Positions 10,140-53,800 of a stretch of 64,000 nucleotides of DNA are shown in pieces. Position numbers and translations under genes: made by a program. The DNA lies in assembly GCA_963630875.1 (NCBI GenBank), contig CAVGOI010000006.1, positions 2,531 to 66,530 on the forward strand. Reading direction: 5' to 3'. The DNA is from Mycobacteriaceae bacterium. Its GTDB lineage: Bacteria > Bacteroidota > Bacteroidia > Bacteroidales > Paludibacteraceae. The notes below the pieces were generated by a model. It was not told the origin of the DNA. It did not search any database and saw only the letters and a program-made list of their open reading frames with translations. How positions within the stretch are numbered: the stretch's first letter is position 1; the number at the start of each line of letters is the position of its first letter.

Positions 10140-10288
10140 GGAGGTGGTGGGGTTTGGGTGTTTTTTCGGGTCGGTATTCCTGCGAAATTGATGCGAATAT
10201 GTGTCGGATATCATAGGGAGTTATAAACGCCAATGGCGTAATTTTTAATGTTCAATGTTTAATGTTTAATTGAGGGAAGAGAGGAGGA

Positions 10289-14192: not shown

Positions 14193-14232
14193 CAAATCGT
14201 ACATCGTTAAGTCGTAAATCGTAAATAAACAC

Positions 14233-18016: not shown

Positions 18017-18132
18017 AATATAGGACCAATCAGCCACTCATCTCGCACGGATATCCATACCACATCCATAGCATATCCATAGCACATCCATAGCACTACC
18101 TTACCACCTATAACTCTTATAAGGGTTTTAGA
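18017..18132. repeat. Promoter-proximal intergenic repeat, copy A
   Basis: aatataggaccaatcagccact...atatccataccacatccatagca...ctaccttaccacctataactcttataagggttttaga aligns with 42373-42477. Confidence 0.7.
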
Positions 18133-18216: not shown

Positions 18217-19353
18217 TTAGGCTTGGGGCTTTGCGGCGGAGTGCTTTTCTATCCAACGGAGAAAGGGTCTTAATGTAGTTTCGTTGTAAGGAATAAAGGT
18301 TTTGCTATGACCTATCAATACTATCGGTATCGGCTCGGTAGCGTTACTGCCTGCTGCACCTGCATAGTGGGGACTCGTACTGCCTGCTGCAGTGGCGGGG
18401 GGCGTAGTTGTGCGGTTGGCGGCGGGTTGGGATTCTATGGTCGTTAGGCGGGATTCTATGTGGCGGAGCATGGCGATCAACTGACGGGAGCGTAGTTGAT
18501 TGAAGTCCATCTTCAACGGGCTGCGAGTGAAGAAACTGCGCAGCGTGATACGACGGTTATCCGCCTGCTCTATCCGCGGCTGTGGCACGGTTGCCTCCAC
18601 AGGGCGTTTATGGCGGTGTAACTTGGCACGGAGCATACGGTATAGGCGTATGGGACTGACGAAAGCGTAGAACGGACGCATCTCGGTGTATATTGGCAGT
18701 TCGGTGATAGCCCCCGCAGGGTCATAGTCGTTGATATTCCGAGCCGAGGCGGTGTAAGGCAAGAGATTGTCATAAGCCGTACGATAGTCGTAGCATACCG
18801 AGCCGCCCTGACAACCGCCCTTATAGACCGAAGTGTCGTGCGTAATACCGTACTCCGTCAGCACCTGATACAACGCAGGCGTGGGCATCATGCTCCAGTT
18901 AGCCGCACGAAAGAGCCACACTTTGTAGTCCGCCCGCACAGGTCGCAGCAACGCTTCGAGATAGCAGACGCACTCGCCCACCATCGCTCGGATACGCTCT
19001 ATGGGCAGTGCCGCCATGTTATAGTCTTCGATGCATTGGTCAAAGTGCTTGCCGTCCCATTCGGCACGGAAATAGGAGGAATGAATATGCAGTTGCACCT
19101 CATGCCCTCTACGAACGGCATCCCGTAGTTGCTCCTCTATCTCGGCGACATGAAAGTCATCACGCCCTGTCTGTTCCCGATAGCGTCGGAAACAGAGAAT
19201 CTCTGCCACATCTGCCATTATCACAAGGTGTTGCTTATAGTCCTCCAGCAAGTTCATTAGGCGATAGGTCGGCTCCACCATCAGTGCCTGCGGATTGCCG
19301 TCGCCATTGCCGTGTATCTCGTAATCCAAAGTGAAGAGCAGTTTATAGGTCAT
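18217..19353 (-). CDS. Polysaccharide deacetylase-like (CE4 / glycoside hydrolase-deacetylase fold) protein
   Basis: 378 aa. N-terminal FTLDYEIHGNG and a later QLHIHSSYF resemble the Asp/His metal motifs of CE4-superfamily enzymes. There is a low-complexity insert near the C-terminus. Confidence 0.5.
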   Translation of the reverse strand: MTYKLLFTLDYEIHGNGDGNPQALMVEPTYRLMNLLEDYKQHLVIMADVAEILCFRRYREQTGRDDFHVAEIEEQLRDAVRRGHEVQLHIHSSYFRAEWDGKHFDQCIEDYNMAALPIERIRAMVGECVCYLEALLRPVRADYKVWLFRAANWSMMPTPALYQVLTEYGITHDTSVYKGGCQGGSVCYDYRTAYDNLLPYTASARNINDYDPAGAITELPIYTEMRPFYAFVSPIRLYRMLRAKLHRHKRPVEATVPQPRIEQADNRRITLRSFFTRSPLKMDFNQLRSRQLIAMLRHIESRLTTIESQPAANRTTTPPATAAGSTSPHYAGAAGSNATEPIPIVLIGHSKTFIPYNETTLRPFLRWIEKHSAAKPQA

Positions 19354-19783
19354 AACAGAGTATTTTATCGGTTGGGAGTTGTTTGTAGAGCGAGAAACCG
19401 ACCTTTCGGTATAGGTTCTGCGCCCGAAGGTTGTTGTCTGCGACTACCAAATAGACCCGCTGAACTTTCCGCCGCCGTAGTTCGGCGATAAGGCGCTGCA
19501 TAAGTTCCGTGCCGTAGCCCTTCCCCCGCTGTACAGGGTCTATCCAAATATCGTACAGCCACCACGAGTAACGCTTTATCTCACGGCTGAACTTACGGCG
19601 TATCACCCCACAGCCAAGCAGCGTATTTCCTTCTTTAAGCAGCATAAAACAAGACGCATAAAGTCCTGATAATGAGAGTATTGCATACCCCCCCCTATTG
19701 GTGTACTTGCGTATCTCCTTATCAGGGAAATAGGCATGAACTACGGCATAATCCGCTTGGGTATACGGAACGAGTATCGGCAT
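19343..19783 (-). CDS. GNAT family N-acetyltransferase
   Basis: 146 aa with acetyl-CoA motif A (VQRGKGYGTELMQRL). Overlaps the downstream gene by 11 nt. Confidence 0.85.
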   Translation of the reverse strand: MPILVPYTQADYAVVHAYFPDKEIRKYTNRGGYAILSLSGLYASCFMLLKEGNTLLGCGVIRRKFSREIKRYSWWLYDIWIDPVQRGKGYGTELMQRLIAELRRRKVQRVYLVVADNNLRAQNLYRKVGFSLYKQLPTDKILCYDL

Positions 19784-19809: not shown

Positions 19810-20832
19810 TTACAATTTATTACTAAACAAACGAAGCAGTTTGCGCTGTGACAGCAAGAACCTTAGCAAGCGATACTTGGCGGGAGAGATGGCGATAGTT
19901 CCCCCTGTAAACTCACAATACGAACCGCCAAAACTACGCTTGAACGCATACACCCCATAAGCAGGATGGTCTTTGTCGGGCGATACGGGGACGCCCCCCA
20001 TATCGAAGCACGCCACTCCGTTCTCGTTATAGTAGCACAAGGCACGCCATAGCAAAAAGGCAGAACAACAGTACTTGCGGTTTAGTTCGTAATCACTGCC
20101 TCCCGAATAATAGTACACCGTGTCGCCCCCTTGCAGCATCAGTGCCACAGCGGCTACCCGGCTCTCTGCTTTCGCCACAAACAGCGTTGCTTTGGGGTCG
20201 GCAAACTTGGCGGCAAAGAAATCATCCGATTTGAGCAACATAGAGGCTTGCGCATGGTTGTGAATGGCGTGCTGTTGTGTGGCTTGGCGCAATCGTTGAA
20301 AGTCCAATAGATACGGCATAGCCTCTGCTCCCCGATACACCTCCACCACGACACCGTTTTTTTCTGCTTTGCGTATGCAGTTGCGTTGTTTTGATTCCAC
20401 CAACTGCCACAACTGCTCCTCCGTGGTATGCAAGTCGGTGCAGAATGTGGCTTCTTTTGTCGGGCTATCTATAGGCAAAGCGTTTCCCCGCACCCAATGG
20501 GTGAGATTGAGCATTGTGATATGCGAACGCTGCGCATACGCACGCACCGCAACGAGCAGTGGCGCGGCACATTGGCTTTCCCATTCCGTAGTCGCAAAGA
20601 CGGGATAACTATCGAAATAGACCGACTTGGCTATTAGGCGCACGAGTGGGACATTTCCACGCAGCGTGCCGACCCATCCGCCCACGACTTGCTCTCCGTC
20701 AAGCACGACCATACCCCACAACGAAGAGGCATAATGCACCGGCAGCATAGGGTTGCCCCAGCGAGTGGCTTGCACAAGCGAATAGTAAGCGGAATAGTAT
20801 TTCTCCGAAAGCGGAACAATCGACATAGCCAT
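19810..20832 (-). CDS. FemAB-family (aminoacyl-tRNA dependent) transferase-like protein
   Basis: 340 aa, duplicated GNAT-like fold length. The C-terminal region (YYYSGGSDYELNRKYCCSAFLLWRALCYYNENGVACFDMGGV, YAFKRSFGG) resembles the FemX/FemAB 'Y.GaS... fD.gG...gl..FK..FG' signature. Confidence 0.65.
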   Translation of the reverse strand: MAMSIVPLSEKYYSAYYSLVQATRWGNPMLPVHYASSLWGMVVLDGEQVVGGWVGTLRGNVPLVRLIAKSVYFDSYPVFATTEWESQCAAPLLVAVRAYAQRSHITMLNLTHWVRGNALPIDSPTKEATFCTDLHTTEEQLWQLVESKQRNCIRKAEKNGVVVEVYRGAEAMPYLLDFQRLRQATQQHAIHNHAQASMLLKSDDFFAAKFADPKATLFVAKAESRVAAVALMLQGGDTVYYYSGGSDYELNRKYCCSAFLLWRALCYYNENGVACFDMGGVPVSPDKDHPAYGVYAFKRSFGGSYCEFTGGTIAISPAKYRLLRFLLSQRKLLRLFSNKL

Positions 20833-20969
20833 AATTGAGAATCTTAAAAAACGACACTTTTATTTAGACAGGACTTGCTTACGAGTTGGTAACGAGTTCC
20901 TAACGAGTTGGTAACGAATTTTCAGAGACTGGTATAAGACTGCTATAAGAGAGATATAACGATTTCATC

Positions 20970-22058
20970 TTAAAAATTGACACTTTTCGTATATAGTTCA
21001 TAGAGCGTGTCTGCCACTACGGGCGTGGTATAACGGGCGGGCAATGCTGGCGACGACAAATGCCCTACCGCCATGGCTTGGCGCAAACAGTGCGCTACAT
21101 CGGCAGCCTCGTAAGTGCAGAGAAACGCATTCGGCACACCCGCCACGACCTCCCGCACATCGCCCACATCGGTCGATACCACAGGACAGCCACACGCCAC
21201 CGCCTCTTTGATAAACTGCGGGCTCCCCTCCGAGAACGAAGTCAGCAGCGCACAATCACACGCATTATATAGCAGCGGCATCTGCTCACGGGTATAGCCG
21301 AAGAGTTCTAGGAGAACAACACTACGACCACTCCAACCTCTCCTTACCCCTCCAGAGGAGGGGGATTCCGATGCGCTATTAGCCCCCTCTCTGAGGGGGA
21401 AGGGGGAGTCGGGAGCAGGGCTTGTGCTGTATACTATCTCCACCGCTTTCTTTGCCAATGGGTAGTTCTTCACACGGTCGGAGAACTCTTTCGAGAACAA
21501 GATATAGGTAGTATGCTCGTCCCACCCCAATCGCTTGCGGCACGCCGTTCTATCCATAGGGTGGAATGCCTCTGTATCCACCGAGCACGGCACGACTGCC
21601 GCATGACGCACCCGCCCCGCTTTCTGCAGCAGTTGCTCCGAGACAAAGATATTACAATCCGACAACCGCATCGCCAAACGAGATAACCACCTGACCGAAC
21701 CGCTATTCACATCGCTGCCGTGGAAAGTGGAGAATGTCTTAGTTGAGTGTTGAGAGTTGAGAGTTGAGAGAAGTGGAGAGTGGAGAGTTGAGCGTTTGGT
21801 ACAGAGTTTCGTGGTCAACGCTGCCACCAAACAGCACAGACCGCTATGCCCATGCACCATATCGGGGCGATACGAACGCACGGCTTTCGGTATGCCCCAC
21901 AACGCACGGACATACCCCCGCCAACCACCGGCAATCAGGTAGTACTCCACCTCCACCCCTTTGGCACGCAATGCCTGCACCTGCTCATAGATAAAAGGCG
22001 CAACATACTCCGTATACGGAGCATAATACCGACGACTGCAAACGATTAGTACTTTCAT
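20970..22058 (-). CDS. Family 4 (GT-B) glycosyltransferase, paralog 1, with in-frame repeat insertions
   Basis: 362 aa. MKVLIVCS start, VHGHSGLC, TFHGSDV, the EX7E-region SFSEGSPQFIKEAVACGCPVVSTDVGDV, and C-terminus TLYELYTKSVNF. Confidence 0.8.
   Translation of the reverse strand: MKVLIVCSRRYYAPYTEYVAPFIYEQVQALRAKGVEVEYYLIAGGWRGYVRALWGIPKAVRSYRPDMVHGHSGLCCLVAALTTKLCTKRSTLHSPLLSTLNSQHSTKTFSTFHGSDVNSGSVRWLSRLAMRLSDCNIFVSEQLLQKAGRVRHAAVVPCSVDTEAFHPMDRTACRKRLGWDEHTTYILFSKEFSDRVKNYPLAKKAVEIVYSTSPAPDSPFPLREGANSASESPSSGGVRRGWSGRSVVLLELFGYTREQMPLLYNACDCALLTSFSEGSPQFIKEAVACGCPVVSTDVGDVREVVAGVPNAFLCTYEAADVAHCLRQAMAVGHLSSPALPARYTTPVVADTLYELYTKSVNF
21329..21410. repeat. Palindromic element translated in-frame within GT4 paralog 1
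   Basis: Contains two 7-bp stem hairpins, cccctccagaggagggg and ccccctctctgaggggg. The outer arms actccaacctctccttacccctc / gagggggaagggggagt are imperfect complements. Encodes ...DSPFPLREGANSASESPSSGGVRRGW... Confidence 0.7.
21740..21795. repeat. Heptanucleotide array (TTGAGNG/TGGAGAG on + strand) within GT4 paralog 1
   Basis: tag ttgagtg ttgagag ttgagag ttgagag aag tggagag tggagag ttgagcg. Translated as KRSTLHSPLLSTLNSQHSTK just before the TFHGSD motif. Confidence 0.75.
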
Positions 22059-23431
22059 AACACAACTACCCTACTCGACCCAAGCGAGCAGGGAACCAAA
22101 TAGAACGGAAAACGAAACTTAATGCGCGAGGAGTGCCGAATAGATGGCTTGCAGCGTGCGTGCCACTTGCGGATTGGTAAGCCCCTGCGACAACAGACGC
22201 TCCCGTGCTTCGGTACGGAACTCCGAGGCAGCACTTTGCTGCTGCGAATATATGGGGGGGGGGTAAAATTAAGCACCATTCGTAGCAACATAGCGAGTTC
22301 GTGCGGGTCGCGACTGTTCGCCACGGCACAACCGGTAATACGCTCTATGCGTTCCCGCACATCGCCCACATCGACAGACACTATCGGGCACCCACACGCC
22401 ATCGCTTCTTTTATCACTTGCGGACTTCCCTCCTGCCGGCTTGTCAACAGCAAACAATCAGCCGCACACATCAACCGATTAACCGTAGAGCGAGAGAAAC
22501 CACGGAGTTCAATTAGACTCCCTCTCTCCCCCTCAAAGAGGGGGGATTCAGAGCATGCACATGCCCCCACTCTGAGGGGGAAAGAGGAGTCAGAGTTGCG
22601 TTTTGGAAGACATGCTATTACTTCCTCTGCTAATGCAGCGTCTTTGACCGAGTTATCAAAAGCGCCGGCAAAGAGAATAAGACGCCTATTCTGTATCTCG
22701 CTGAATGAATATACCTTACGCTCTTTACCGTCAGAAACAGTACACTGCAAGCTCATCTCTGCCAAGCGCCTGCGTGCCTCCGACCGAGAGAGCAGTTGCT
22801 CCTCCGAAAGCGTTACCCCGCACGGTAGCAGTGAGTAGTTATCGCCTCTATACGCCCAAAGAGCAAACCATTTCCCTTCGGCACGCGCCGTGCGTATGTT
22901 TGCCCTCGATACAAAGATATTCCATGCTGAGAGCCGCATTGCCCACCGCGACAGCCACAGTACACGAGGCGTGTTTATATCGCTCCCGTGGTAAGTGGTG
23001 ATAACTTTAGTTGAGCGTTGAGCGTTGAGCGTTGAGTGCAGTTTAGAGTTGAGAGAAGTTGAGCGTTGAGCGTTGAGCGTTGAGTGCAGTTGAGCGTTGA
23101 GAGTTGAGTGTTGAGTGCAGTTTAGAGAAGTTGAGCGTTGAGCGTTGAGTGTTGAGTGCAGTTTAGAGTGGATAGTGGATAGTTTAGCGTGTATCGTAGC
23201 CAGATTGGCAAGCAGACCGCAGAGCCCGTAGTGTGCATGGACGATATCCGGGCGCTCCGTGCATATAGTTTGCCGCAGGCGAGGTATCTCCCGCAGGTAA
23301 CCACGCACCCCTTTCCCCCGCACGGCATACCGCACGACCTCGTGCGAGAGGTCTTGCAACGCCTGCATTTGCTCCTCCACAAACGGAGCGAAATGCCCAC
23401 CTTTGTCCGCTGCCACTATCAGGATTTTCAT
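22055..23431 (-). CDS. Family 4 (GT-B) glycosyltransferase, paralog 2; C-terminus out of frame at a C10 tract as sequenced
   Basis: MKILIVAADKGG, VHAHYGLCGL, TYHGSDI and SRQEGSPQVIKEAMACGCPIVSVDVGDV. After the poly-C (22254-22263) the listed frame gives a basic, non-protein-like tail that runs into the next gene. The +1C frame ends at 22119 with a paralog-like C-terminus. Confidence 0.75.
   Translation of the reverse strand: MKILIVAADKGGHFAPFVEEQMQALQDLSHEVVRYAVRGKGVRGYLREIPRLRQTICTERPDIVHAHYGLCGLLANLATIHAKLSTIHSKLHSTLNAQRSTSLNCTQHSTLNAQLHSTLNAQRSTSLNSKLHSTLNAQRSTKVITTYHGSDINTPRVLWLSRWAMRLSAWNIFVSRANIRTARAEGKWFALWAYRGDNYSLLPCGVTLSEEQLLSRSEARRRLAEMSLQCTVSDGKERKVYSFSEIQNRRLILFAGAFDNSVKDAALAEEVIACLPKRNSDSSFPLRVGACACSESPLFEGERGSLIELRGFSRSTVNRLMCAADCLLLTSRQEGSPQVIKEAMACGCPIVSVDVGDVRERIERITGCAVANSRDPHELAMLLRMVLNFTPPPYIRSSKVLPRSSVPKHGSVCCRRGLPIRKWHARCKPSIRHSSRIKFRFPFYLVPCSLGSSRVVVL
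22254..22263. repeat. G10 (+ strand) / C10 (coding strand) homopolymer
   Basis: atat-gggggggggg-taaaatt, counted directly. Confidence 0.9.
22516..22591. repeat. Palindromic element translated in-frame within GT4 paralog 2
   Basis: gactccctctctccccctcaaagaggggggattcagagcatgcacatgcccccactctgagggggaaagaggagtc. The terminal arms are near-perfect reverse complements. It sits at the same position in the protein as the element in paralog 1 (...DSSFPLRVGACACSESPLFEGERGS...). Confidence 0.75.
23008..23185. repeat. Roughly 178-nt heptanucleotide array (TTGAGCG/TTGAGTG on + strand; CTCAACG on coding strand) within GT4 paralog 2
   Basis: Runs of 3-4 consecutive ttgagcg units are separated by cagtttagag blocks. 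Three units (21 nt) translate to the 7-aa period LNAQRST, seen three times in the protein. Confidence 0.85.
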
Positions 23432-23545
23432 TGTGCTGCTGTACTCCGCTAACGACGGTTATTTTCTCCATGCTGCCCATTAAAGGGCCATTAAAAGGCT
23501 GCGCATATAATTCCTAACTCCTAATTCCTAATTGTTATTGTTTTG

Positions 23546-25366
23546 TCAGAATGAGAACGAAAAAGCGACAGAGGCGGTGAAGTTGCGCCCCTGATAGAAG
23601 AGCGGGCAGTAAGCATTGAGGTAATCGGTAGCCGTTCCGTAGTACTCACTGCCGATAGCCGTGCCATTAGCCGTCGCCTCCTCCAAAGTATTATCAAAAC
23701 CCCGCGCATGGTTGTACGACAACGAGAGCGTGAGATACATATTGGGGTGCACCTCGTATATCCCGTTCAGACACACCTCGTCGTTACGGAAGATGGCACG
23801 GTCGAAAGGCTTGCGGGCTATGGTTTGCGAAATGCCGCCGTCGGCCCCACCTCCGCGCAAATAAGCATACGCGTTGTATTTGGTATCACCCGTGTAGGAC
23901 AAGCGCAACAGCATACCCCGTATCGGGCGATAGGCAAGTTCCGCATAAATAGACTGCGCATTATCGCCTAAATAATGCCCCATCGTATAGCCGTTACTCT
24001 TCCAAGTAAGCACCTCAACAGAATGGGTGTAACAAGCAATATACGAGCGCATAAACTCACCCCGCAGGCTCAAACCCGTGAGCGGCCAACCCGACCAGTT
24101 GAAACCCACAAGATAGGACACGGGATTATTCTCCGCATTGCTGCTTTTGAGCCGCGAGAGTTTGAACTCGTCCAGATAGAAAGAACCATAGAGTTGGATA
24201 TACCGCCATGGACGGACGGAGAGGGAGGCAAAAGCCTGTGAGTTCTGATTCTCGGTGCGCAGCCCTTTGGTCAGCAAGTGGTCAAGCGACTTATAGAACG
24301 CCACGGGGATAAAATACGCTGCCTGCGGTGTGCGCTCGGCATAGACGATGGAATTGCCAAACGAGAAAGAAAGATAGCGTATGGGCGTGAAAGTGAACAT
24401 ATTGGCTGCCATATACTTGCCAGCAGGGCGGTAATGGCGTTGCGTGGCTCCGGTGGTGGTGTTCTCGACATAGTAATTGGTGGAGTCCGTCACATTGGAC
24501 ACCAACCACGCATGGAAATAGTCAAACTGAAACCAACGGCAGGGTGTGAGTTGCAAAGACACCATCGGCACCGCCGGATTATGCCCCGACAGGATATTCG
24601 ATGCATGGTACGCATCGCCCCACCGGATACTCTCGCGCTGCACGGAAAGGCTGCCCCACCACGCATACAGACTGATACCGCCCTTGGAGTCGGAGAAGTC
24701 GCCACCGTAGTCGGCTTCCTTGTACTGCACACCGGCTATATTGCGCAAGGCAGGTTGTTTCTGCGAAGCCCCGTAGTGGATACGCGCACCGTTCATACGG
24801 TCTTTTTCGGTGGGGAAATAGGTCTTGTTCAGCCAGTTGCCGCTCCACGAGTTGTCGCGCAGCGAACCCCAGATACTGAGGTGGCGGGCAATATCCATCT
24901 GCAGTTCCGCCCCCCACCAGCGTTGGAGGATAGCCCCCTTTTTGCTTGCCGTAATATCGGCACCGAGGATAGGGCGGATACGCATCTTGAACAGGTTGTT
25001 GGGGGTGCGATACGAGAACTGCGGGTCCGCCAGCGAGAGGGAAAAGGTGCTGTGGTCGGTATATTGCACATAATTGCTTACCATCGTATCCCGCTCCAGC
25101 GCTAATTCGTTGCGGTAGAAAGCAAGGTCTTTGCGTTGCCTTGTGTTGAGCAGCGAGTCTGCCTGCTGCGCCTCGTCCAACATCTGCGCCACTTGCAGGC
25201 GCGTGTAGGGGCGTACTGCCGTCTGCGCTGTAATCACGCCGTCGGTAAGGAGTTCGTCCAAATAGTCGTACAGCCGTGTGTAGGTCAACGGGACGGGTAT
25301 GTTCTGTGCCTGCAGGGCAGCACTTGCCAACAGGAAGACAAGGATGTATCGTGTTGTGCGTTTCAT
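23546..25366 (-). CDS. Capsule-assembly Wzi-like outer membrane protein (uncertain)
   Basis: About 606 aa from the ATG at 25366 (MKRTTRYILVFLLASAALQAQ signal). N-terminal helical region LYDYLDELLTDGVI...VRPYTRLQVAQML resembles the Wzi N-terminus, followed by a beta-barrel-like alternating pattern ending in ...FSF. The listed start at 25381 is TTG. Confidence 0.5.
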   Translation of the reverse strand: MKRTTRYILVFLLASAALQAQNIPVPLTYTRLYDYLDELLTDGVITAQTAVRPYTRLQVAQMLDEAQQADSLLNTRQRKDLAFYRNELALERDTMVSNYVQYTDHSTFSLSLADPQFSYRTPNNLFKMRIRPILGADITASKKGAILQRWWGAELQMDIARHLSIWGSLRDNSWSGNWLNKTYFPTEKDRMNGARIHYGASQKQPALRNIAGVQYKEADYGGDFSDSKGGISLYAWWGSLSVQRESIRWGDAYHASNILSGHNPAVPMVSLQLTPCRWFQFDYFHAWLVSNVTDSTNYYVENTTTGATQRHYRPAGKYMAANMFTFTPIRYLSFSFGNSIVYAERTPQAAYFIPVAFYKSLDHLLTKGLRTENQNSQAFASLSVRPWRYIQLYGSFYLDEFKLSRLKSSNAENNPVSYLVGFNWSGWPLTGLSLRGEFMRSYIACYTHSVEVLTWKSNGYTMGHYLGDNAQSIYAELAYRPIRGMLLRLSYTGDTKYNAYAYLRGGGADGGISQTIARKPFDRAIFRNDEVCLNGIYEVHPNMYLTLSLSYNHARGFDNTLEEATANGTAIGSEYYGTATDYLNAYCPLFYQGRNFTASVAFSFSF

Positions 25367-25377
25367 ATTCAATTCGG

Positions 25378-26904
25378 TCAATGGCTATGGGCGTGTTTGA
25401 ATAATATGGTATAGACGATACGCCAGAAATACACAAAGTCCGTGAGCAGTGTACCCCGCTCCTCGCACATCGTGAGATAGCGCATCTCGGACGCTTGTAT
25501 CTCGTCCAAAGTCTTGGGCATATCGGCATAGAAAGGCGGCAGCAATCCGGGCTTATGCTTCACACGCTTGGCTTGCAACTCAGGCGAATAGAGCGAGAAA
25601 TACTGCTGTGAGATAGGGCGCACGCCTACCAGTTTCATATCCCCCTTGAGGAGATTGATGAGCATCGGCCACTCGTCTATCCAGTATTTGCGCATAAAGC
25701 GTCCTAAAGTGGTTACGCGTATATCGTGGCTGAACTTGCCTCCCTCCTGCAAGGCATACCGTTCATAGATATACGACTGCAGGAATTCGGAATACGGGTG
25801 CATGGTTCGGAACTTATAGACGCGGAACATCTTCCCGTTCATCCCCACCCGATTGAGCCGCACCAAGATACCGTACAAGCGTCTTTCGGTGATTTGCGGG
25901 CGGAATTTGCGCCGTGCAATGACATAGTCGAGGTTGCCTATCTTGCGTTCTGTAACAATCTCGAAGCCGCAGTAGCACAGCCGTCCCAGCACCTCCGCCT
26001 TGCTCAGGACGCGGTCTTTGCCTTCCGTGATATCGAAATACAGGCGCGAGGTCATAAACAACTTGGGCAGCACGCGCTTGTACAGGAAGAACAGCGTGTA
26101 ATACAGCCAGTTCAGCACCGGAGGATAGCGTTTGAGTATATCGCGTTTGGTAACCGATTGCGGCTCGTAGCAGCACACCCAAATACCCTCGTCGGGCAAC
26201 TTGTCGTTGACCAAGGTGAACATCTTGTTCACCCCCCGTATTTGGTTGAGCGGTGCAAAGTTCACCAAGGTGTCGAAGCGGTAGTCGGGCAGTTTGGCAA
26301 TGTTGTACAAGTCGGTGGAACGCAGGGTGAAGGTATTCGACGAGTAGAGTTCGATATGTCGTTCCAAGAAAGCAATCAGGCTTTCGGGTGCGAACGAGAG
26401 AATACTCCGGTGCAGGTTCTCGCGGGCTTCGGGCAAGAAGGGTTGCGGCGGATACAGCACCGCCTGTGTGCCGCGCTCGGGTGCCGCAATAGGTTCCTCG
26501 TCGGCATCGGAAGCATACCGGTAGGCATGCTTGGCAATAAGCATCGCCACCGACACCGCCAACATGACGAGCCATATCGTCAGCAGCACCCATATTGAGA
26601 AATTGCTACGGGCGTGCCACCACATATAGGCGTACATGGCAGCGAAAGTAAACAGAGCCGCCATGAGCAATCGCCACAGGTCCTTTCCCATCTTCATGTA
26701 CTTCACCGGTATGTAGCGGTGGCAGCCGTAACTGAACACGAGCCACACACCCGCGAAGACCAAGGCGAAGATATAGTATTTCTGGAACGGGACTTGGGTT
26801 GAGAGCGGGAATAACGCCAGCACAATCAGCACGCTTACCACCAATGCGATGGCATCGGCGATAATGTACTTTCCATAAGGATGATAAACTATGCGTCTTT
26901 TCAT
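25378..26904 (-). CDS. Polyprenyl-phosphate sugar-phosphate transferase (Bac_transf family, priming enzyme)
   Basis: 508 aa with about four N-terminal TM helices. The C-terminal motifs are YKFRTM and IDEWPMLINLLKGDMKLVGVRP. Confidence 0.8.
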   Translation of the reverse strand: MKRRIVYHPYGKYIIADAIALVVSVLIVLALFPLSTQVPFQKYYIFALVFAGVWLVFSYGCHRYIPVKYMKMGKDLWRLLMAALFTFAAMYAYMWWHARSNFSIWVLLTIWLVMLAVSVAMLIAKHAYRYASDADEEPIAAPERGTQAVLYPPQPFLPEARENLHRSILSFAPESLIAFLERHIELYSSNTFTLRSTDLYNIAKLPDYRFDTLVNFAPLNQIRGVNKMFTLVNDKLPDEGIWVCCYEPQSVTKRDILKRYPPVLNWLYYTLFFLYKRVLPKLFMTSRLYFDITEGKDRVLSKAEVLGRLCYCGFEIVTERKIGNLDYVIARRKFRPQITERRLYGILVRLNRVGMNGKMFRVYKFRTMHPYSEFLQSYIYERYALQEGGKFSHDIRVTTLGRFMRKYWIDEWPMLINLLKGDMKLVGVRPISQQYFSLYSPELQAKRVKHKPGLLPPFYADMPKTLDEIQASEMRYLTMCEERGTLLTDFVYFWRIVYTILFKHAHSH

Positions 26905-27601: not shown

Positions 27602-28846
27602 CTACTCCAGCGCATGTATCACCAACCCCGACCTCAGTTTGGGTTCGAACCAAGTGGCCTTGGGAGGCATGATATGACCGGTATCGGCAATGCGGATAAT
27701 CTGTTGCATGGTTACGGGATAGAGGGCCAGTGCGGCTTTCATTTCGCCGGAATCGACGCGTTGTTTGAGGGCGTCGAGTCCCCGCAGTCCGCCCACAAAG
27801 TCTATCCGTTTGTCTGTTCGCAGGTCTTTGATTCCCAGCAACTTGTCCAATATCAGCCGCGACGACACCGACACATCCAGCACGCCTATCGGGTCACTGT
27901 CGTCGTACCGTCCCGCACGCGTTGTGAGTTTGTACCATTTCCCGCCCGCATACAGCGAGAACTCGTGCAGTTTCTCCGGCCGATAGGGTTCCGTCCCTTT
28001 CTCTTCGACCTCAAAATCCTCCTCCAATGCTTTGAGGAACTGTCCGGTGGTCATGCCGTTGAGGTCGCGCACCACGCGGTTGTAATCCATCACATAGAGT
28101 TGATTGTCGGGGAAGCACACGGCGAGGAAGTAGTTATATTCTTCTTTCCCCGTGTGGTGCGGGTTTTGCCGTTTCATCTCATCGCCCACGAGTGCCGCAG
28201 CCGCGCTACGATGGTGTCCGTCGGCGATATACATGGCGGGTATTTTCGCCATGATTGCGGTAACGGAGTGTATGGTTTCGGGGTCTTTAATCACCCAGAA
28301 CCGGTGTTCGAACCCGTCGGGTTGCGACACGAAGTCGTATTCGGGCTTCCCGGCAGTTACTTTCGCCACCAAAGCGTCGAGGTCGGCTTGGTGGGGGTAG
28401 GCAAAGAAAACGGGCTCCATATTGGCACGGTTGATACGCACGTGCTTCATGCGGTCTTCTTCCTTGTCGCGTCGGGTGAGTTCGTGTTTTTTTATTCTCC
28501 CCGCCATATAGTCTTCCACCCATGCAGCGACCACCAATCCGTATTGCGTGCGTGTGCCCATGGTCTGCGCATAGACATAGTAGCAGTCTTCGGAGTCTTG
28601 TTTCAGCCAGCCTTCTTGGAGGAAGTGTTCAAACTGTTGTCGTGCGGCGTCATAGACTCTTTCGTCGTGTTCATCGGTGCCTTCGGGGAAGTTAATCTCG
28701 GGCTTGATGATATGGTAGAGGGACATCGCGTTGCCCTCGGCCTCGCGTCGTGCCTCGTCGGAGTTGAGCACATCGTACGGACGGCTGCTCACTTGTTCCA
28801 CGAGTTCTTGTGGCGGTCGTATTCCGCGGAAGGGTTTAACTTTCAT
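27602..28846 (-). CDS. DUF1015 family protein
   Basis: 414 aa. MKVKPFRGIRPPQELVEQVSSRPYDVLNSDEAR and ADGHHRSAAA match what I recall as DUF1015 hallmarks. Confidence 0.8.
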   Translation of the reverse strand: MKVKPFRGIRPPQELVEQVSSRPYDVLNSDEARREAEGNAMSLYHIIKPEINFPEGTDEHDERVYDAARQQFEHFLQEGWLKQDSEDCYYVYAQTMGTRTQYGLVVAAWVEDYMAGRIKKHELTRRDKEEDRMKHVRINRANMEPVFFAYPHQADLDALVAKVTAGKPEYDFVSQPDGFEHRFWVIKDPETIHSVTAIMAKIPAMYIADGHHRSAAAALVGDEMKRQNPHHTGKEEYNYFLAVCFPDNQLYVMDYNRVVRDLNGMTTGQFLKALEEDFEVEEKGTEPYRPEKLHEFSLYAGGKWYKLTTRAGRYDDSDPIGVLDVSVSSRLILDKLLGIKDLRTDKRIDFVGGLRGLDALKQRVDSGEMKAALALYPVTMQQIIRIADTGHIMPPKATWFEPKLRSGLVIHALE

Positions 28847-28872
28847 GGTGTGTTTTTGATATAGCGATCCCG

Positions 28873-29373: not shown

Positions 29374-29446
29374 GTTGCAGGCAATATGTACGCAATTTTT
29401 CCAAAAAAAATCAATGGTCAATTACATGGTAATTACAGTTGATGGG

Positions 29447-29639
29447 TTTATGGGTTTAGTTTATCCGTTTATGGGTTTATGCGTGGTTTAGTTGGTTTAT
29501 GGGTTTATCCGTTTATGGGTTGATGAGTTTATGCGTGGTTTAGTTGGTTTTGGGTTAAGGGGTTAAGCAGCAACTCTTTCACTTCTCAACCCACTAAACC
29601 CATTCAACCACGCATAAACGGATAAACTAAACCCATAAA
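29447..29639. repeat. 26-bp perfect inverted repeat separated by 141 nt, embedded in tandemly duplicated 'gtttatggg' word repeats
   Basis: tttatgggtttagtttatccgtttat (29447-29472) is the exact reverse complement of ataaacggataaactaaacccataaa (29614-29639). The left arm region is itself duplicated (29445-29498 and 29495-29550). Confidence 0.85.
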
Positions 29640-29651
29640 CTCATAAACAAC

Positions 29652-29693
29652 ACTCAACTTCCCCCCCTCTTTGAGGTGGGGGAAGGGGGAGTC
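29652..29693. repeat. Solo hairpin copy of the GT-borne palindromic element
   Basis: actcaacttccccccctc-ttt-gaggtgggggaagggggagtc. It shares the exact 16-mer gggggaagggggagtc with 21395-21410 and is followed by a T6 run. Confidence 0.7.
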
Positions 29694-37660: not shown

Positions 37661-38194
37661 CTATTTGCGCATACGGATGACCCGTGCCGGATTGCCGGCG
37701 ACGATGGCATAATCCGGAACATCATGGGTAACAACCGACCCCGCACCGATAATGCTATGCGCTCCGATGCGTTTGCAGCCCGGCAGGACAATGGCACGCG
37801 CCCCTATCCACACATCACCGCCTATCTCCAAGGGTGTTTGCCGCTCGACTTCCGTTTCAGCCACAGCACCAATCGGCACATCGGGGTCTGCGAAGGAATG
37901 TGCCCCCCCCAGAAACAATACCTCTTCGCCCATCAACAGCCTGTCGTGTATCACCAACGGACGATTGTGGGTACAGAAATCTTTCCCTATGCCGACATGG
38001 TTGCCGACACGGATATTCTTGCCATTGCCGAAGTAGGCACCCTGCTCCACATTCACATCGTTGCCGCACGCCGCAAACAGATGCTTGGCACACCGATAGC
38101 GCAACCGATACGCCACACGCCCCAAGAGCGGTTTCGTGGATTTGGGCAAGTGCCGTGCAAAGGCGTAATACACTATCAACCAAACTGTTCTCAT
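37661..38194 (-). CDS. Hexapeptide-repeat (LbH) O-acetyltransferase (WcaF/maltose acetyltransferase-like)
   Basis: 177 aa with [49 protein letters not shown]-type overlap with fcl. Confidence 0.85.
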
Positions 38195-39149: not shown

Positions 39150-40322
39150 TTACTGACTGACTGCGCGGGAGGTTATGGTGTCTATGGGAAGTGTGAGCGT
39201 ATGCAGAATGGCTTCCGCTTGTCGCAAGGGCGTACGCTTCTTCTGCCCGGGTCCGAACTGGAAGGCTTCCGCCGTGATAACTTTTCCGTTTATGGGGTCC
39301 AGTCGGGTCAGGCTTACATAGGGACCTCCCATTGCCTCGCCGCCTTTCATCTTCCACAAGCCGCGTATCTCCACCGCATACTGTCCCTGCTGCACACTTA
39401 TCTCGCGCATGACAGGCGGCATAACCTTATACTCCGTGCCCATATGACTGCCCGCCACCGTTGCTGTAACCACGCGCCCTAAGACGGCGTCCCGCTGTCG
39501 GTTCAGGAAGTCTGCCGTAAAGGTTTCGGGATGAATATAGGGATACGCATAGACAACAAGGTCGCGTCGCATTGCGCCTTTGTCGTTGCAGCACCACAGG
39601 AGGTGTACCGCAGGCTCTGCTATGTCTTGCGCCCTCGTCAGGGACGGCATCGGCAAAACAGTATCCATGATGAGCATATAGTCTTCCGGAATGAGCATAT
39701 CGCAGTGCATCTGTTTGTTGAGGACAGCGCGTGCCGGTTTGTTGGTGCTTGCGCGGTAGAAGCGCATCTGCCGCTGCAACTCCTGCTGCACGAACCAATC
39801 GCGCACCTCCTCGCCATGCGCCAACCAATACGCCACAAAATCCGACTGAGAGGGCGTTTGGATACGGCATACGGCTTGCGGTTTCGACCAATAGTTGAGG
39901 GTCAATTTCCCCTTAGTCTGCGTATAGCGATTGGGGTCAATATCGACGATGAGGATATTGCGTGTCGGTTTCAGCACATCATCGAAAGCCGTCGGGCTGA
40001 CCTGCGTCAGTTTGAAATACGGTTCCACCTGTGGCAAGCACGGCATCGGAGCCCCCATGACAGCACGGACCAAGTCGTAGGTGGTGGCAATCGGCTCACT
40101 GTACGCCGATGCTCTGTCCACCAGCGCATACCGCCCCACCGAGTCCAACTCTTCTTGGTTAAGTGCCCCATTGGGTATCACGACCAAGCACTCGTACACC
40201 GACCCCGTAGCCGAGGTCAGGGTACGCTGTCCCGAAGGACGGCACCCCACCATGCCCACCACTGCCAACAAGGCAGCCACGGCGAACCCGAGCGCGGTCT
40301 TTCTCACAGGCGCATGCATCAT
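39150..40322 (-). CDS. Conserved lipoprotein (DUF4837-like, uncertain)
   Basis: 390 aa with signal plus lipobox (VGMVGC). I recognise no catalytic motif. Overlaps the fadD-like stop. Confidence 0.5.
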
Positions 40323-42220
40323 ACCGCCTCCATATTTTTCGCGTTGAACAAGTCTTTGCCCTCGGCGGTGTAGGCGTACTCAATCCGCGCCTTATAGTAC
40401 TCTTCTACCTTTCCGCGCACAATCTTCATTGTGGAATTGACCAAGTGGTTCTGTTCCGTGAACGGCTCCGGCAGCACGGCTATGGCTTTCGGCAGCCACA
40501 TTTCGGGGAACATACCGGCAAACTTCCCGTTCCGATACTCGTCCGCCTCGCTTTGTATCTTCTGCAGCATGGCACGCTTGCCATCCGCCGAAGCAGGGTT
40601 TAGCCCCTTGCCTTTAACCCATTCGCGCAAAGTGTCCTTGTTGGGAACAATCAGCACAATGGTGTAAGGGTCTTGGTTGTTGTGCAGCACGACCTGTTCG
40701 ATGTATTTGCTGCCATCGGTCAGGCTGTCCTCATAGCCTTCGGGGCTGTATTTCTCGCCATCGGAACTGATGAGCAGCGACTTGAAGCGTCCTACGACCC
40801 ACAAGTAGCCCGGGTGGTCCGTACGGATATAGCCCATGTCTCCCGTGTGCAACCAGCCGTCCACAATGGTCTTGGCGGTGGACTCGGGGTTCTTCCAATA
40901 GCCCGCCATCACATTCTCGCCGCGGATAACAATCTCGCCCTTCTGTCCTGCCGGCACTTCCTTGCCCTCTTCGTCGCATATTTTCAAGTCCATCTGCGAA
41001 ACAATCCTCCCGCTCGAACCGAAGATAGCATGTCCTGCGGAGTTGGCACAGATAATCGGTGTGGCTTCGCTCAAGCCGTATCCTTGGAACATCGGCATGC
41101 CCACTGCGCAGAAATACCGCTGCAACTCGATGTCGAGCAGTGCGCCTCCACCGACGAAGAACTTCATACGCCCGCCGAAGCCCTCGCGCACGGAGCGGAA
41201 TATCAGTCGGTCGAACAACTTGACCAACGGCGCACGCCATGCGTCTTTCCCGCCGCGATTCCAGTATTCTTTGTTATAGCGAATGGCATTGTTGAGGGCG
41301 AACCGGTAGAGTTTCTCCACGGTCTTGCCTTTCTGGTGTATGCCGCTTTCGATACTTTTGCGGAAGTTACGCGCCAAAGCCGGCACCGAAAGCATAACCA
41401 TCGGGCGCACTTCCCGAATGGATATGGGTATGTTTTTGAGGGTAGCCATAGCCGTCTTTCCCACCGGCACCGTCGCAATACTTCCGCAGTAGGACATCAT
41501 CGTATAGAAGCCTGCCACATGGGCAAAGCAGTGGTCTAACGGCAGAATGATGAGCATCACATCGTCCGGCTCCACGCCAATGATGGAGCGTGCCTGTTCC
41601 ACATTGGCGGTATAGTTCCTGTGCGTAAGCAGAATGCCTTTCGGGTCAGCCGTCGTACCGGAAGTGTAACTGATATTGGCATAGTCGTCGGGACCTACCG
41701 AGTGGTAGCGTTCCACAAACTTTTCCGGCTCTGCGGCGAGCAGCGCCCGTCCCTTTTCGAAGACCTCCTCAATGCTTATTTCACGGTCTTGGTATTCTTC
41801 GATGGGGTCAAAGACAATCACATATTTCACCTGCGGACACTCGGGAAGAATTTTGCGGATCTTGGGCAGTTGCTGCTCGGAAGTCATGATGTATTGTGCG
41901 TCCGAATGCTGAATGCGGAACAGCAAGTCGCCGGCTTCCGCCAACTTGATACTCAACGGCACATTCACACCGCCCGCGTAGAGGATACCCAACTCGCCCG
42001 TAACCCACAGGTTGCGTCCTTGTGACAGGAGGGCGGCCTTGTCGCCTTTTTTCATCCCCAATGCCATCAAGCCGGCACCGATGATATGGGCTTGTTCACG
42101 CGTTTGGGTATAGGTAGTTTCCGTCCAGACATCGCCTATTTTCTCGCGCAAGAAGACATGGTCGGCATACTGCGCGGTGTATTTTTCGACGAAATCAATA
42201 ATAGTTAATCGCTTGTTCAT
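40319..42220 (-). CDS. Long-chain-fatty-acid--CoA ligase (AMP-dependent synthetase)
   Basis: 633 aa with AMP-binding motif ISYTSGTTADPKGILLTH, YGLSEA, and GWLHTGDMGY...VVGRFKSLL. Confidence 0.85.
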   Translation of the reverse strand: MNKRLTIIDFVEKYTAQYADHVFLREKIGDVWTETTYTQTREQAHIIGAGLMALGMKKGDKAALLSQGRNLWVTGELGILYAGGVNVPLSIKLAEAGDLLFRIQHSDAQYIMTSEQQLPKIRKILPECPQVKYVIVFDPIEEYQDREISIEEVFEKGRALLAAEPEKFVERYHSVGPDDYANISYTSGTTADPKGILLTHRNYTANVEQARSIIGVEPDDVMLIILPLDHCFAHVAGFYTMMSYCGSIATVPVGKTAMATLKNIPISIREVRPMVMLSVPALARNFRKSIESGIHQKGKTVEKLYRFALNNAIRYNKEYWNRGGKDAWRAPLVKLFDRLIFRSVREGFGGRMKFFVGGGALLDIELQRYFCAVGMPMFQGYGLSEATPIICANSAGHAIFGSSGRIVSQMDLKICDEEGKEVPAGQKGEIVIRGENVMAGYWKNPESTAKTIVDGWLHTGDMGYIRTDHPGYLWVVGRFKSLLISSDGEKYSPEGYEDSLTDGSKYIEQVVLHNNQDPYTIVLIVPNKDTLREWVKGKGLNPASADGKRAMLQKIQSEADEYRNGKFAGMFPEMWLPKAIAVLPEPFTEQNHLVNSTMKIVRGKVEEYYKARIEYAYTAEGKDLFNAKNMEAV

Positions 42221-42285: not shown

Positions 42286-42349
42286 CCTGTTTTTCATCGG
42301 ACTAAATAAAACCGTCCCCCCCCCATCTTAGTACCAAGCCCCAAAATAG

Positions 42350-42477
42350 TCAACCCCCAAACGGGACATAACAATATAGGACAAATCAGCCACTAATCAG
42401 CCACTTATATCCATACCACATCCTTAGCACTACCCTAGCACTACCTTAGCACCTATGACTCTTATATGGGTTTTAGA
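42350..42477. repeat. Promoter-proximal intergenic repeat, copy B (with cccccaaacgggacat head)
   Basis: Positions 42373-42477 align with 18017-18132. The head 42350-42369 (tcaacccccaaacgggacat) matches 48745-48764. Confidence 0.7.
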
Positions 42478-42516
42478 CCTCTTTTGAATGCCCTCTTGAC
42501 CTTTCCTTCCCATCCG

Positions 42517-42576
42517 TCAAAGATGCCTTTTACTATCCCTGTCCTTTCTTCAAAGATGCCTTTTACTATCCCTGTC
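42517..42576. repeat. 33-nt period tandem repeat (2 copies plus a degenerate third)
   Basis: tcaaagatgccttttactatccctgtc occurs at 42517-42543 and again exactly at 42550-42576. A degenerate copy, ccgaagatacccctgtcc, follows. Confidence 0.85.
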
Positions 42577-42640
42577 TTTTTTCCGAAGATACCCCTGTCC
42601 TACGATGCTTATTCTTCCATTGAGGGGTGTAGTATATAGC

Positions 42641-48744: not shown

Positions 48745-48830
48745 GTCACCCCCAAACGGGACATGACCACATGCAGGATTCCTACTACTAACTCCCGATC
48801 ATATCCGACACATAACCGACACATATTCGA
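48745..48830. repeat. Promoter-proximal intergenic repeat, diverged copy C
   Basis: gtcacccccaaacgggacatgaccacatgcagga... then atatccgacacataaccgacacat. It parallels the layout of 42350-42420 (tcaacccccaaacgggacataacaatatagga...atatccataccacatcc). Confidence 0.5.
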
Positions 48831-50752: not shown

Positions 50753-50781
50753 GGGGGGGGGTATTTTTTATAGTACTTTTG
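50753..50781 (+). promoter_or_regulatory. -7 box TACTTTTG (50774-50781) preceded by a G9 tract (50753-50761)
   Basis: tag-ggggggggg-tattttttatagTACTTTTGcagcg. The -7 box is 24 nt upstream of the susC-like ATG at 50805. Confidence 0.5.
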
Positions 50782-50804: not shown

Positions 50805-53800
50805 ATGAAGAAAAAAGTCTTACTTACATGTTTCATTGCAACGGTTGCCATAGTAGTGTCGGCTCAAGGTTTTACCATCACAGGTAAGGTCGTGGACGCT
50901 GCAACGAATGAACCGTTAATAGGAGTGAGTGTTTCCAACGCAAAATCGTATGCGGGGACCATCACGGATTACACCGGTGCATTCTCTTTGCAAGCCGACA
51001 AAGGGGATGTACTGCAATTCTTCTATGTCGGCTACCGCAGCGACAGCCTTCGCGTCAGCAGCAGCCAAAGTATCGTGATACGCTTGGCGGAAGAGGTACA
51101 GCAAATCGATGAGGTCGTCGTAGTCGGTGCGGCTATGAAGAAGTCCGACCTTACCGGTGCGATAGGCAGCGTCAGTGCCGAAGAACTGACTGACATACCT
51201 ACGGTGAACCTCAACCAAGCATTGCAAGGAAAAGTAGCGGGCGTATTTGTAGTAAGCAGTCCGCAACCCGGCACCAACGCATCCATCAAAATTCGTGGTA
51301 ACAACTCTATCTCATACGGCACGAACCCGCTCTATGTGATAGACAATATTATGATTGACGGCTCTGACATCTCTACCATCAATCCGAACGACATTGCCAG
51401 TATCGAAGTGCTGAAAGATGCCAGTGCTACCGCATTGTACGGTGCGCGTGCAGCAAACGGTGTCATCGTCATCACAACCAAAAAGGGACAGAAAGGCAAA
51501 GGAAAAGTAACCTACGACGGCTGGGTAGGTTGGAAGAACTTTGCCAATACGGTACCGACGATGAGCGGAAGAGAGGTATGGGATTTCCGTGTAAACGCCT
51601 TTATCAACGGCGAAATGGACACTTTCCGAGAGAAAAACCCGGGCAAAGACGAGGAGTACTTCCAGAATTACCGCGACTACTATATCAACCGGTATCTTGT
51701 TTGCGGCAGTTCACAAAGCGAAAAGTATTCCGATCCGAGGTTCATAGACACCAACAAGGCTTTTATGGACTGGGAGATTGCTGCCTACGAGGCCAATCAG
51801 ACCTACAACTGGGTGGACGCTATCGCACAACAGGGCTTCTCACAGAACCACAATCTCACCTTTTCGGGGGCTACAGATGCAGCCAACTACTATCTTTCGT
51901 TTGGCCTCTCGGATGAGAAAGGACAAATCAAGAAAACCGACTATCGCCGTTACAACGGTAAGGTGAACTTGGACTTCAAGGTAAACAAGTGGCTGAAAGT
52001 CGGCACCAACAATTCGTTGGCATTCTCCCAGTCGAACCCGTTGGTACAGGACAACATGTACTTGCTGGCATTTCGGGCAAACCCGCTGTTCCCGATTACA
52101 AGCGACGAGTATTACATGTGGGATGGCAAGTTGGAGAGTCAAGCCTTCCACAACCCGTTGCGCTCGTTGGAAACAGTAACCAAAGATGTGGACAAGTTCC
52201 GCTTTCTCACTTCCGATTACATCAACATCAACCCCGTAAAAGGATTGGATATCCGTTCCACCTTCTCGTTTGATTTTGCGCAGCAGGAAAACAACACCTA
52301 CTATGGTGTAGAGAGTACGGAGTGCCACGGCAGCAACACAGCAGGGCAAGCCACACAATACCGCACGCGTTCCATGAACTGGCAGTGGGACAACACCGTT
52401 TCTTACAACACAACGATACGAGAAAAGCACCGCATCGGGGCGATGGCAGGTATGAACATGTCCTACCACAGCGATAACTACAACACCATAACAGCCTTGG
52501 ATTTCGGCAACGACTTGTTCACCTACAAGAGCATACAAAGTGCTACCGACAAAGAGCATTCTTCCTTCTATTCAGGCTACACCTCCTATTCACTGATGTC
52601 TGCCTATTTGCGGCTCAATTATGTATATGACTCACGCTACTATGTTACCCTTACCGGTCGTGCGGATGGCAGTAGCAAATTCAGCCAAAACAACAAGTGG
52701 GGGTATTTCCCGTCTGTGGCTTTAAGTTGGAACATAACAGGCGAGCAATTCATGAAAGACCAGCATGCGGTTGATAACCTCCGCCTGCGCTTGGGCTACG
52801 GATTAGTCGGCAACCAGAATATCCCGAACTATAGTTACTACACCTTATTCTCACCGACTACCACATTGGACAGTTACATCTTGCGAAACAGCGGCGTTTA
52901 CGGGAATCCCAATTTGAAATGGGAAACGCAGAAGCAAGCAAACATCGGTCTTGATATGGGCTTTTGGCACAATCGCATAGATATGACCTTGGACTACTTC
53001 TATACACGGAATGAGGACTTGCTCATGCAACGCAGTTTGGCGTCTTCCTATGGCTATTCATACATGATAGACAATGTAGGTTGTCTGGAAAACCAGGGGG
53101 TGGAGTTCACTTTCAATTTGGAAGCCATCCAAACCAAGGATTGGAATTGGAACATCGGTTTCAACCTCTCGCACGATAAGAACAAAATTATCTCGCTCTA
53201 CGACAATGTGGATGCCATCTATAGTTCCTCAGGTACTTCTATTAACCGTTACGGTAATTTATTCGTCGGTCAGCCGCTGAACAACATCTATGTATATGAG
53301 TTTGACCATATCATGCAGGATACGCCCGAAGACTGGGAGTATGTGAACAGCATGGACTTCGGTGGTACAACGGTTATGCCGGGGGATATCATTCCGAAAG
53401 ACCGCAACGGCGACGGAAAAATCAGTGATGCAGACAAATATGTCTATGGCAAAACCGACCCGATTATCTACGGCGCATTACAAACCGACTTGAGTTGGAA
53501 AGGTATTACCCTGCAGGTGATATGCAACTATTCCTATGGCGCACACAAGGTAAGTTCCCTGTATGAAAGTCTGATGTCCTCCACCGGTACATCCGCTACG
53601 CACACAGACAATCTGAACAGTTGGTCGCCCACCAACACCAATACCAACATACCCCGCGCTTACTATACGACCTCCGGAAAGAGCCGTTATTCATTGAGTT
53701 CCGTGGATTTGGGCATTCAAGATGCTTCGTTTTTCAAGTTGTCGGCGGTAACGCTGTCGTATGATTTCCCGCGCACTTGGATGAACAAGATACACTTCGA

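Follow-up and report, generated by a model that had tools for sequence, protein, structure and literature searches.

A poly-C tract as a probable slipped-strand switch in a surface-polysaccharide glycosyltransferase of an uncultured gut Bacteroidales bacterium

A run of ten cytosines (C10) interrupts the reading frame of a GT4 glycosyltransferase gene in a surface-polysaccharide cluster of an uncultured gut Bacteroidales bacterium, and sequence comparison leads us to regard it, with a probability of roughly 0.8, as a slipped-strand contingency tract. It lies in a stretch of 64,000 nucleotides (nt) from contig CAVGOI010000006.1 (GenBank assembly GCA_963630875.1, positions 2,531 to 66,530), all of which was analysed and which we call the window. 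The gene carrying the run (paralog 2, here the GT) is on the minus strand and is directly followed by a second, intact GT4 gene (paralog 1, here the paralog). Replication slippage would add or remove C residues. At a length of 8 or 11, reading would continue through a proline-rich disordered linker into two C-terminal helices and yield a complete enzyme (ON), whereas at 9, 10, 12 or 13 the helices would be replaced by an unrelated tail (OFF), most likely destroying activity. The copy in the window would represent the OFF state, and a population of cells would be mixed for one sugar addition. We infer that such changes are reversible within a clone, that activity is lost in OFF cells and that the glycan phenotype is altered.

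The tract and its consequences for the reading frame can be read directly from the DNA. Simple-sequence repeat (SSR) loci are marked by a G/C run of about 8 nt or more in an open reading frame (ORF) or promoter, and the uninterrupted C10 inside ORF 22055-23431 is such a run. G/C runs of 9 or more are matched four times (three tracts) in the window, where dinucleotide shuffles predict 0.34; this excess, together with the presence of a run at the orthologous position in relatives, indicates that the C10 run is not a chance feature. Its codons are Thr-Pro-Pro-Pro, within the linker. As sequenced, MVLNF-T-PPP is followed by YIRSSKVLPRSSVPKHGSVCCRRGLPIRKWHARCK...SRVVVL, with the C-terminal stretch past the tract reading ...MVLNFTPPPYIRSSKVLPRSSVPKHGSVCCRRGLPIRKWHARCK...SRVVVL up to the stop, and the resulting product of 458 amino acids (aa) is identical to database protein P0243. 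The TGA of this frame (22057-22055) overlaps the ATG of the next gene (22058-22056) as ATGA. With C11 the product is 437 aa long and with C8 436 aa, both ending ...SAASEFRTEARERLLSQGLTNPQVARTLQAIYSALLAH at a stop (22119-22121) that lies 60 nt before the ATG of the paralog, while C9 or C12 opens a third tail (...PPHIFAAAKCC...ARLGRVG) with its stop at 22066-22068. The ON lengths are those with n = 2 mod 3 (8 and 11) and lengths of 9, 10, 12 and 13 lead into alternative tails, as expected of a frame switch. The frame-restored product aligns end to end with the paralog, C-terminus included (35% identity, E 2e-63, BLASTP). An earlier note, made from the sequence alone, had claimed that a C10 tract puts the GT out of frame, that a Cys/Arg/Ser-rich tail then runs into the next gene, that 11 or 8 C would restore the frame as far as a stop at 22119-22121, and that the restored C-terminus aligns with that of the paralog. 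The G10 at 22254-22263 of the plus strand, the frame translations, the 65-aa tail ending in the ATGA overlap and the full-length BLASTP alignment all agree with it; its 11-C translation had the C-terminus and stop right but contained one proline too many, C11 reading T-PPP-IY and not PPPP.

Length polymorphism is likewise observed directly. Among ten assemblies with GT proteins more than 90% identical, lengths of C8, C9, C10, C11 and C13 occur, three ON and seven OFF; five of these lengths come from DNA (window, L001, L082, L081, L003) and five are inferred from protein, the set includes members of the same 90% protein clusters, and some of the Logan and NCBI entries may share source samples. 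C8 is found in P0245 (TPPIY) and C11 in L081/P0007 and P0241, all ON; the OFF lengths are C9 (L001, L082/P0017, P0246), C10 (window/P0243, P0242) and C13 (L003/P0001, P0244). The five sequences known from DNA have identical 30-nt and 40-nt flanks around the run and, over 600 nt, differ at 0-1 positions downstream of the tract and at 4-24 upstream; a repeat number that varies between near-identical flanks is a hallmark of SSR loci. More distant clades vary in the same manner, with C8 ON in L086/L087 vs C9 OFF in L083, and C8 ON in L002 vs C9 OFF in L004 and L007. For the L005/L006 clade a length of 10 is the one in frame, with L005 (C10) and L006 (C9 then T) ON and P0016 OFF. The distribution of tract lengths was also sought in metagenome contigs of the Joint Genome Institute (JGI), where an exact-flank gap-pattern scan gave 0 matches and a protein-guided scan returned only relatives of at most 48% identity, all of them without the tract, so the close clade is absent from that collection.

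The run has also been conserved over a long time. It is present at the orthologous position in relatives with 60-97% protein identity, and relatives of at most 50% identity have no run at this position. Identity to the window at four-fold degenerate sites of the GT is down to 39-40% in L005/L006 and 53-55% in L002/L004/L007, and despite these near-saturated sites an uninterrupted C8-C10 occupies the same codons in all five; CCC accounts for only 35% of the Pro codons in window genes. The density of G/C runs of at least 8 nt is 2.31 per 10 kb in the close-clade loci vs 0.10 per 10 kb in other Bacteroidales loci (~1.09 Mb), a 23-fold difference. Taken with the four-fold identity of 0.39-0.55, this means that the pure tract has been maintained beyond neutral expectation, a further mark of an SSR locus. 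In some lineages a substitution has fixed the site. L168/L169 carry CCCACCCCC (Pro-Thr-Pro, in frame) and are locked ON, and the protein motif of this type is also seen in P0002, P0004, P0005 and P0008; L084 carries CCCTCCCCC, which is interrupted and out of frame, and is locked OFF. In L170 a C9 leads into an alternative frame, from which a compensating indel within the linker brings the reading back to that of ...SEFRTEARERLLSQGLTNPQVARTL...; this argues that the C-terminal helices are needed, whereas the linker can vary freely. Every lineage, OFF ones included, keeps the ON-frame C-terminus (..RERLLSQGLTNPQVARTL..).

The GT product scores above the Pfam gathering cut-offs (in brackets) for PF13439 at 36.0 bits (28.5), PF13692 at 56.4 (27) and PF00534 at 38.0 (26.4), that is, for Glyco_transf_4 and Glyco_trans_1_4/Glycos_transf_1, and like it the paralog exceeds the thresholds for the GT4 N-terminal and Glycos_transf_1 domains. 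An AlphaFold2 model built from a 64-sequence alignment (A1; mean predicted local distance difference test score, pLDDT, 85.2; predicted template modelling score, pTM, 0.80) has the GT-B fold with two Rossmann domains and ends in C-terminal helices. Its top Foldseek matches in the PDB are the GT4 enzymes BshA, GlgM, MshA and PimA (E 1e-12 to 1e-9), with PglA and WaaG also returned. In this model, which places the tract directly within the fold, residues 376-387 form the last helix of the C-terminal Rossmann domain, the Pro run (391-393) falls in a low-confidence linker (388-408, block pLDDT ~50), and helix 409-415 and the terminal helix 420-436 follow with pLDDT ~90. The EX7E motif (E334-GSPQVIK-E342), invariant in the 64-sequence alignment, is upstream of the tract and so present in OFF products too. 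A frameshift at the tract keeps the catalytic core and removes the two terminal helices. The last helix of a GT-B enzyme folds back to pack against the N-terminal domain, which makes a loss of activity likely in the OFF state; going by the model, the frameshift probably inactivates the enzyme. We also considered the alternative C-terminal tails as functional proteins and rejected this, as they are Cys/Arg-rich, overlap the conserved ON-frame helices and offer no evidence for a function.

The earlier note had left the choice between a slipped-strand switch and a homopolymer error. Long G/C runs are a classic miscall site and one added C restores a perfect paralog-like C-terminus, so the recorded length might be a sequencing or assembly error, with a true length of 11 (or 8) and an intact gene in this genome. 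We consider this unlikely, given that independent assemblies whose flanks are near-identical show five lengths and each of the three frames, that another assembly (P0242) has the same C10 frame and that the ORFs at the other coding homopolymers of the window (C8, C8, T8) are intact; a wrong length in this record would alter neither the polymorphism of the tract among strains nor its nature. The five lengths and three frames between near-identical flanks, together with the long-kept pure run, therefore favour a switch, and the orthologous tracts to which the earlier note had pointed vary in length rather than sharing one fixed length and the same altered tail. A mutational hotspot without an adaptive role is another reading, in which a dispensable GT is decaying in many strains and the run is its first breaking point. 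This would fit with seven of the ten close relatives being OFF, with the interrupted and out-of-frame run of L084, with an additional frameshift downstream in L085 and with the presence of the GT in at least three different gene neighbourhoods. It is nonetheless quite improbable in our judgement, because the ON-frame C-terminus persists in all lineages including those that are OFF, the OFF genes have no further stops or decay upstream of the tract, the run has stayed pure despite saturated synonymous sites, the frame of L170 was restored by a compensating indel and conserved runs recur at fixed positions in two more genes of the pathway. In bacteria, transcription can slip on homopolymers of at least nine residues, which could blur the OFF state, and RNA polymerase slippage or ribosomal frameshifting on C10/G10 might supply some full-length enzyme and leave the gene constitutively (weakly) ON. 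Such correction at the level of expression seems very unlikely: programmed recoding sites have a slippery run conserved at one fixed out-of-frame length, with the same arrangement in orthologs, whereas the lengths here range over 8-13 and many orthologs are either in frame as they stand or carry an in-frame interruption of the run. Some weight must nevertheless be set against the slipped-strand switch itself. The length polymorphism is known from comparison between assemblies, and the comparison sequences are all short-read metagenome assemblies, some at ~5x, in which long G/C runs are somewhat error-prone. The ratio of seven OFF to three ON is that of random drift among three frames, and the ratio alone does not show selection. 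Finally, the OFF product holds the whole catalytic core including the EX7E motif, which may leave room for residual activity.

The frames that are read in the OFF states raise a further possibility. Past the tract both non-ON frames of the window are open, one for 65 codons up to the ATGA overlap and the other for 61 codons to a point 10 nt short of the ATG. In relatives with tails of 62-76 codons the off-frames are open for 83-104 codons, one always ending in the ATGA overlap and the other at -10 or +20, and this stop/start arrangement is conserved in relatives though tail length ranges over 44-76 codons. In the other genes of the window both off-frames are open for at least 60 codons at 1.8% of positions and for at least 86 at 0.2%, and 0 of the 40 have a 3' end with both off-frames open likewise; per lineage, the openness has P 0.005-0.09 by codon shuffling and P 0.011-0.039 by synonymous resampling. 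The non-ON frames might therefore be kept free of stops so that ribosomes in the OFF states reach the ATG of the paralog, which would avoid Rho-type polarity and could enhance the coupled translation of the paralog and the genes downstream; the switch would then have three states and alternate between two paralogous transferases instead of only removing one step. We think this rather doubtful, and attach the same doubt to its extension, in which loss of the GT is coupled to maintained or increased translation of the paralog and the downstream acyltransferases as a toggle between two glycan structures. Both alternative frames do run to the paralog start, one ending exactly in the ATGA overlap, the arrangement is rare among other window genes with low shuffle and resampling P values, and a Campylobacter review raises the possibility that an SSR at the end of an ORF influences the gene after it (PMC8355987). 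However, the observation is post hoc and the lineages behind the P values are not independent, one alternative frame has an early stop in L005, and L168 has open frames too, although its GT has no paralog after it. The genome also has many long spurious ORFs, and composition accounts for part of the effect. Antisense ORFs of 238-416 aa lie over real genes on the plus strand at 22122-22838, 24278-25105, 25726-26598 and 27614-28864, and as they reflect a composition poor in off-frame stops they matter in judging how open the alternative frames are.

The features of the locus are collected in the table below.

Table. Positions of the poly-C tract, its reading frames and the neighbouring or related genes in the window.
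Feature	Position	Strand	Remarks
Poly-C tract	22254-22263	minus	C10 on coding strand, G10 on plus strand; hypermutable simple-sequence repeat; orthologous tracts C8-C13
GT4 glycosyltransferase gene (paralog 2)	22055-23431	minus	OFF frame as sequenced; 458 aa; Cys/Arg/Ser-rich 65-aa tail past tract
ON-frame tail	22119-22253	minus	Read solely with C8 or C11; variable linker, helices 409-415 and 420-436, TAA stop at 22119-22121
ATGA overlap	22055-22058	minus	Stop of the C10/C13 frame and start codon of downstream paralog
Downstream GT4 paralog (paralog 1)	20970-22058	minus	362 aa, intact
Polyprenyl-phosphate sugar transferase (Bac_transf)	25378-26904	minus	Initiating transferase
Wzi-like outer-membrane protein	23546-25381	minus	
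FemAB-like / Acetyltransf_6 gene	19810-20832	minus	Same polysaccharide cluster
GNAT acetyltransferase gene	19343-19783	minus	In-frame G8 on coding strand (plus strand C8 at 19688-19695); second candidate switch
Hexapeptide-repeat acyltransferase gene (Hexapep)	37661-38194	minus	In-frame G8 on coding strand (plus strand C8 at 37903-37910); third candidate switch

On the minus strand the genes follow one another in the order Bac_transf, Wzi-like, tract-bearing GT, paralog, FemAB-like and GNAT, after which comes a 378-aa protein that gave no family match. This gene set is a small surface-polysaccharide cluster. The Wzi-like and Bac_transf genes are found upstream in the same order in L081. Comparison of the window with L081, L082, L083, L085, L168 and L170 places the GT in at least three upstream contexts among close relatives (Bac_transf-Wzi, Epimerase-Hexapep and an MlaD-like gene), which suggests that recombination has moved the gene between loci; in L168, whose interrupted run is locked ON, the GT is the last gene. 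Relatives of the GT are all from metagenome-assembled genomes (MAGs) of Bacteroidales from gut and rumen. The nearest named relatives of the window are “Paludibacteraceae bacterium” MAGs, with proteins to which its LysS is ~90% identical. An Rfam scan of the window gave no match and no rRNA.

The in-frame G8 runs in the GNAT and Hexapep genes, although shorter than the GT tract, are candidates for acting in the same way. The GNAT run is intact (G8, 146 aa) in the window, L002, L003, L004 and L082, while a G7 truncates the product at 48-59 aa in L005, L007 and L086, the gene of the last being called as two pieces. For Hexapep, the window and five relatives have G8 and a 177-aa product, which a G9 truncates at 107 aa in L006; in L083 and L168 this gene is directly upstream of the GT. 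With two acetyltransferase genes of the pathway carrying G8 runs, the surface glycan is probably varied combinatorially. The other two tracts of at least 9 G/C in the window fall between genes, one preceding a SusC-like gene and the other a gene for an AMP-binding enzyme. Downstream of the G9 at 50753-50761 come a Bacteroidetes-type -7 box, TACTTTTG (50774-50781), at a distance of 13 nt, and the ATG of the SusC-like TonB-dependent receptor (50805-53930) at 44 nt, with a SusD-like gene after the receptor; this run could be a promoter-region length switch. The G9 at 42316-42324 (minus strand) lies ~95 nt upstream of the ATG of the AMP-binding enzyme gene (40319-42220, minus strand) and upstream of a promoter-like pair, TTTG-N20-TACCTTTG. 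The idea that the window as a whole is a poor, error-ridden assembly was rejected on its 89% coding density and the intact ORFs at its other homopolymers.

Repeats of other kinds are also found in and around these genes. Both GT paralogs have an in-frame insert of heptanucleotide repeats (CTCAACG on the coding strand, ...HSTLNAQRST...) in the N-terminal domain, at 23009-23169 in the GT and 21741-21796 in the paralog. Its length and content vary among relatives more than 90% identical, some of which have an unrelated “SPSLRGQGGS” at the same spot, and in the model of the GT it appears as a low-confidence helical excursion at residues ~100-140. GC-rich palindromes of the form CCCCCTC-N-GAGGGGG are present at three sites (22528-22544, 21383-21405 and 29663-29688), where shuffles predict 0. 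Two are in-frame insertions into a disordered loop (aa 282-300, pLDDT <50) of the GT and the paralog, and the third is apparently intergenic; they are reminiscent of the palindromic elements found in frame in Rickettsia. Short tandem arrays, with a period of 7, 11 or 33 nt, are frequent between genes (10239-10270, 14194-14226, 18051-18107, 20881-20950, 23508-23533, 29414-29556, 42384-42590 and 48800-48825), and an array of TAATTCC x3.7 is located just upstream of the GT start.

The closest parallels are the glycosyltransferase genes of the lipooligosaccharide (LOS) and capsule of Campylobacter jejuni (wlaN/cj1139, cgtA, cgtB and cj1145), in which one-base changes in an intragenic G/C run of ~8-13 nt switch between a full-length and a frameshifted product (PMC8355987). 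Several such genes per glycan locus, allowing combinatorial variation, and length polymorphism between strains with identical flanks are features of both (PMC8355987). For poly-G tracts of C. jejuni, rates of 1e-4 to 1.6e-3 per division have been measured and a bias maintains tract lengths near G8-G11; the lengths seen here (8-13) match the range in which those tracts switch (PMC8355987). However, the present putative system belongs to the phylum Bacteroidota and not to Campylobacterota, its tract is near the 3' end in a disordered linker so that the OFF product keeps the catalytic core, and both of its OFF frames are open to the next gene with no early stop. Poly-G/C slippage in glycosyltransferases of surface glycans is also established in Neisseria, Helicobacter and Haemophilus (PMC11868660). 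Neisseria lgtA/lgtC/lgtD (poly-G), lgtG and siaD (poly-C) and Helicobacter pylori futA/futB (poly-C) are examples of homopolymer slippage in transferases for LOS, capsule or Lewis antigens, and adjacent paralogous transferases in one operon are a shared trait; their tracts, however, are mostly in the 5' half with early truncation, have been validated experimentally and belong to pathogens, whereas the organism here is an uncultured gut commensal.

Within the same order, the invertible promoters of Bacteroides capsular polysaccharides (Mpi-type invertases) serve the same purpose, stochastic variation of the surface polysaccharide (PMC11868660; PMC10994844). There site-specific inversion switches whole loci, whereas here single modification steps would be switched, through replication slippage within a coding homopolymer. 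The GNAT and Hexapep G8 runs can be compared with E. coli K1 neuO and other phase-variable O-acetyltransferases, in which the repeat number changes in the coding region of a polysaccharide acetyltransferase (PMC3090145), although the neuO repeat is a phage-borne heptanucleotide and the repeats here are mononucleotide and chromosomal. For Bacteroides, one review gives only invertase-mediated variation (PMC11868660). The literature on SSR phase variation in Bacteroidales, Prevotella and Paludibacteraceae yielded no SSR switch described for Bacteroidales polysaccharide genes, the one related item being speculation on a C-run in a B. fragilis acetyltransferase (PMC3090145). The system is thus most likely a case of SSR phase variation of the Campylobacter or Neisseria style, a known kind, in a group where it is undocumented.

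Poly-G/C switches in the GT and the two acetyltransferases would add a second, finer layer of variation beside the invertible promoters of gut Bacteroidales (PMC11868660), and this kind of change is missed by PhaseFinder and similar tools that look for inversions. Annotation is affected as well, with such genes being called overlong or split in MAGs, as with the database products of 458-470 aa. The open OFF frames, which end at the next start codon, suggest a testable way in which a switch inside an operon might avoid polar effects, and the three-state arrangement together with the two acetyltransferase G-runs, if true, would amount to an SSR “phasome”, the first to be described for polysaccharides of gut Bacteroidales. 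Overall, such switching would have a bearing on phage and antibody escape in uncultured gut lineages.

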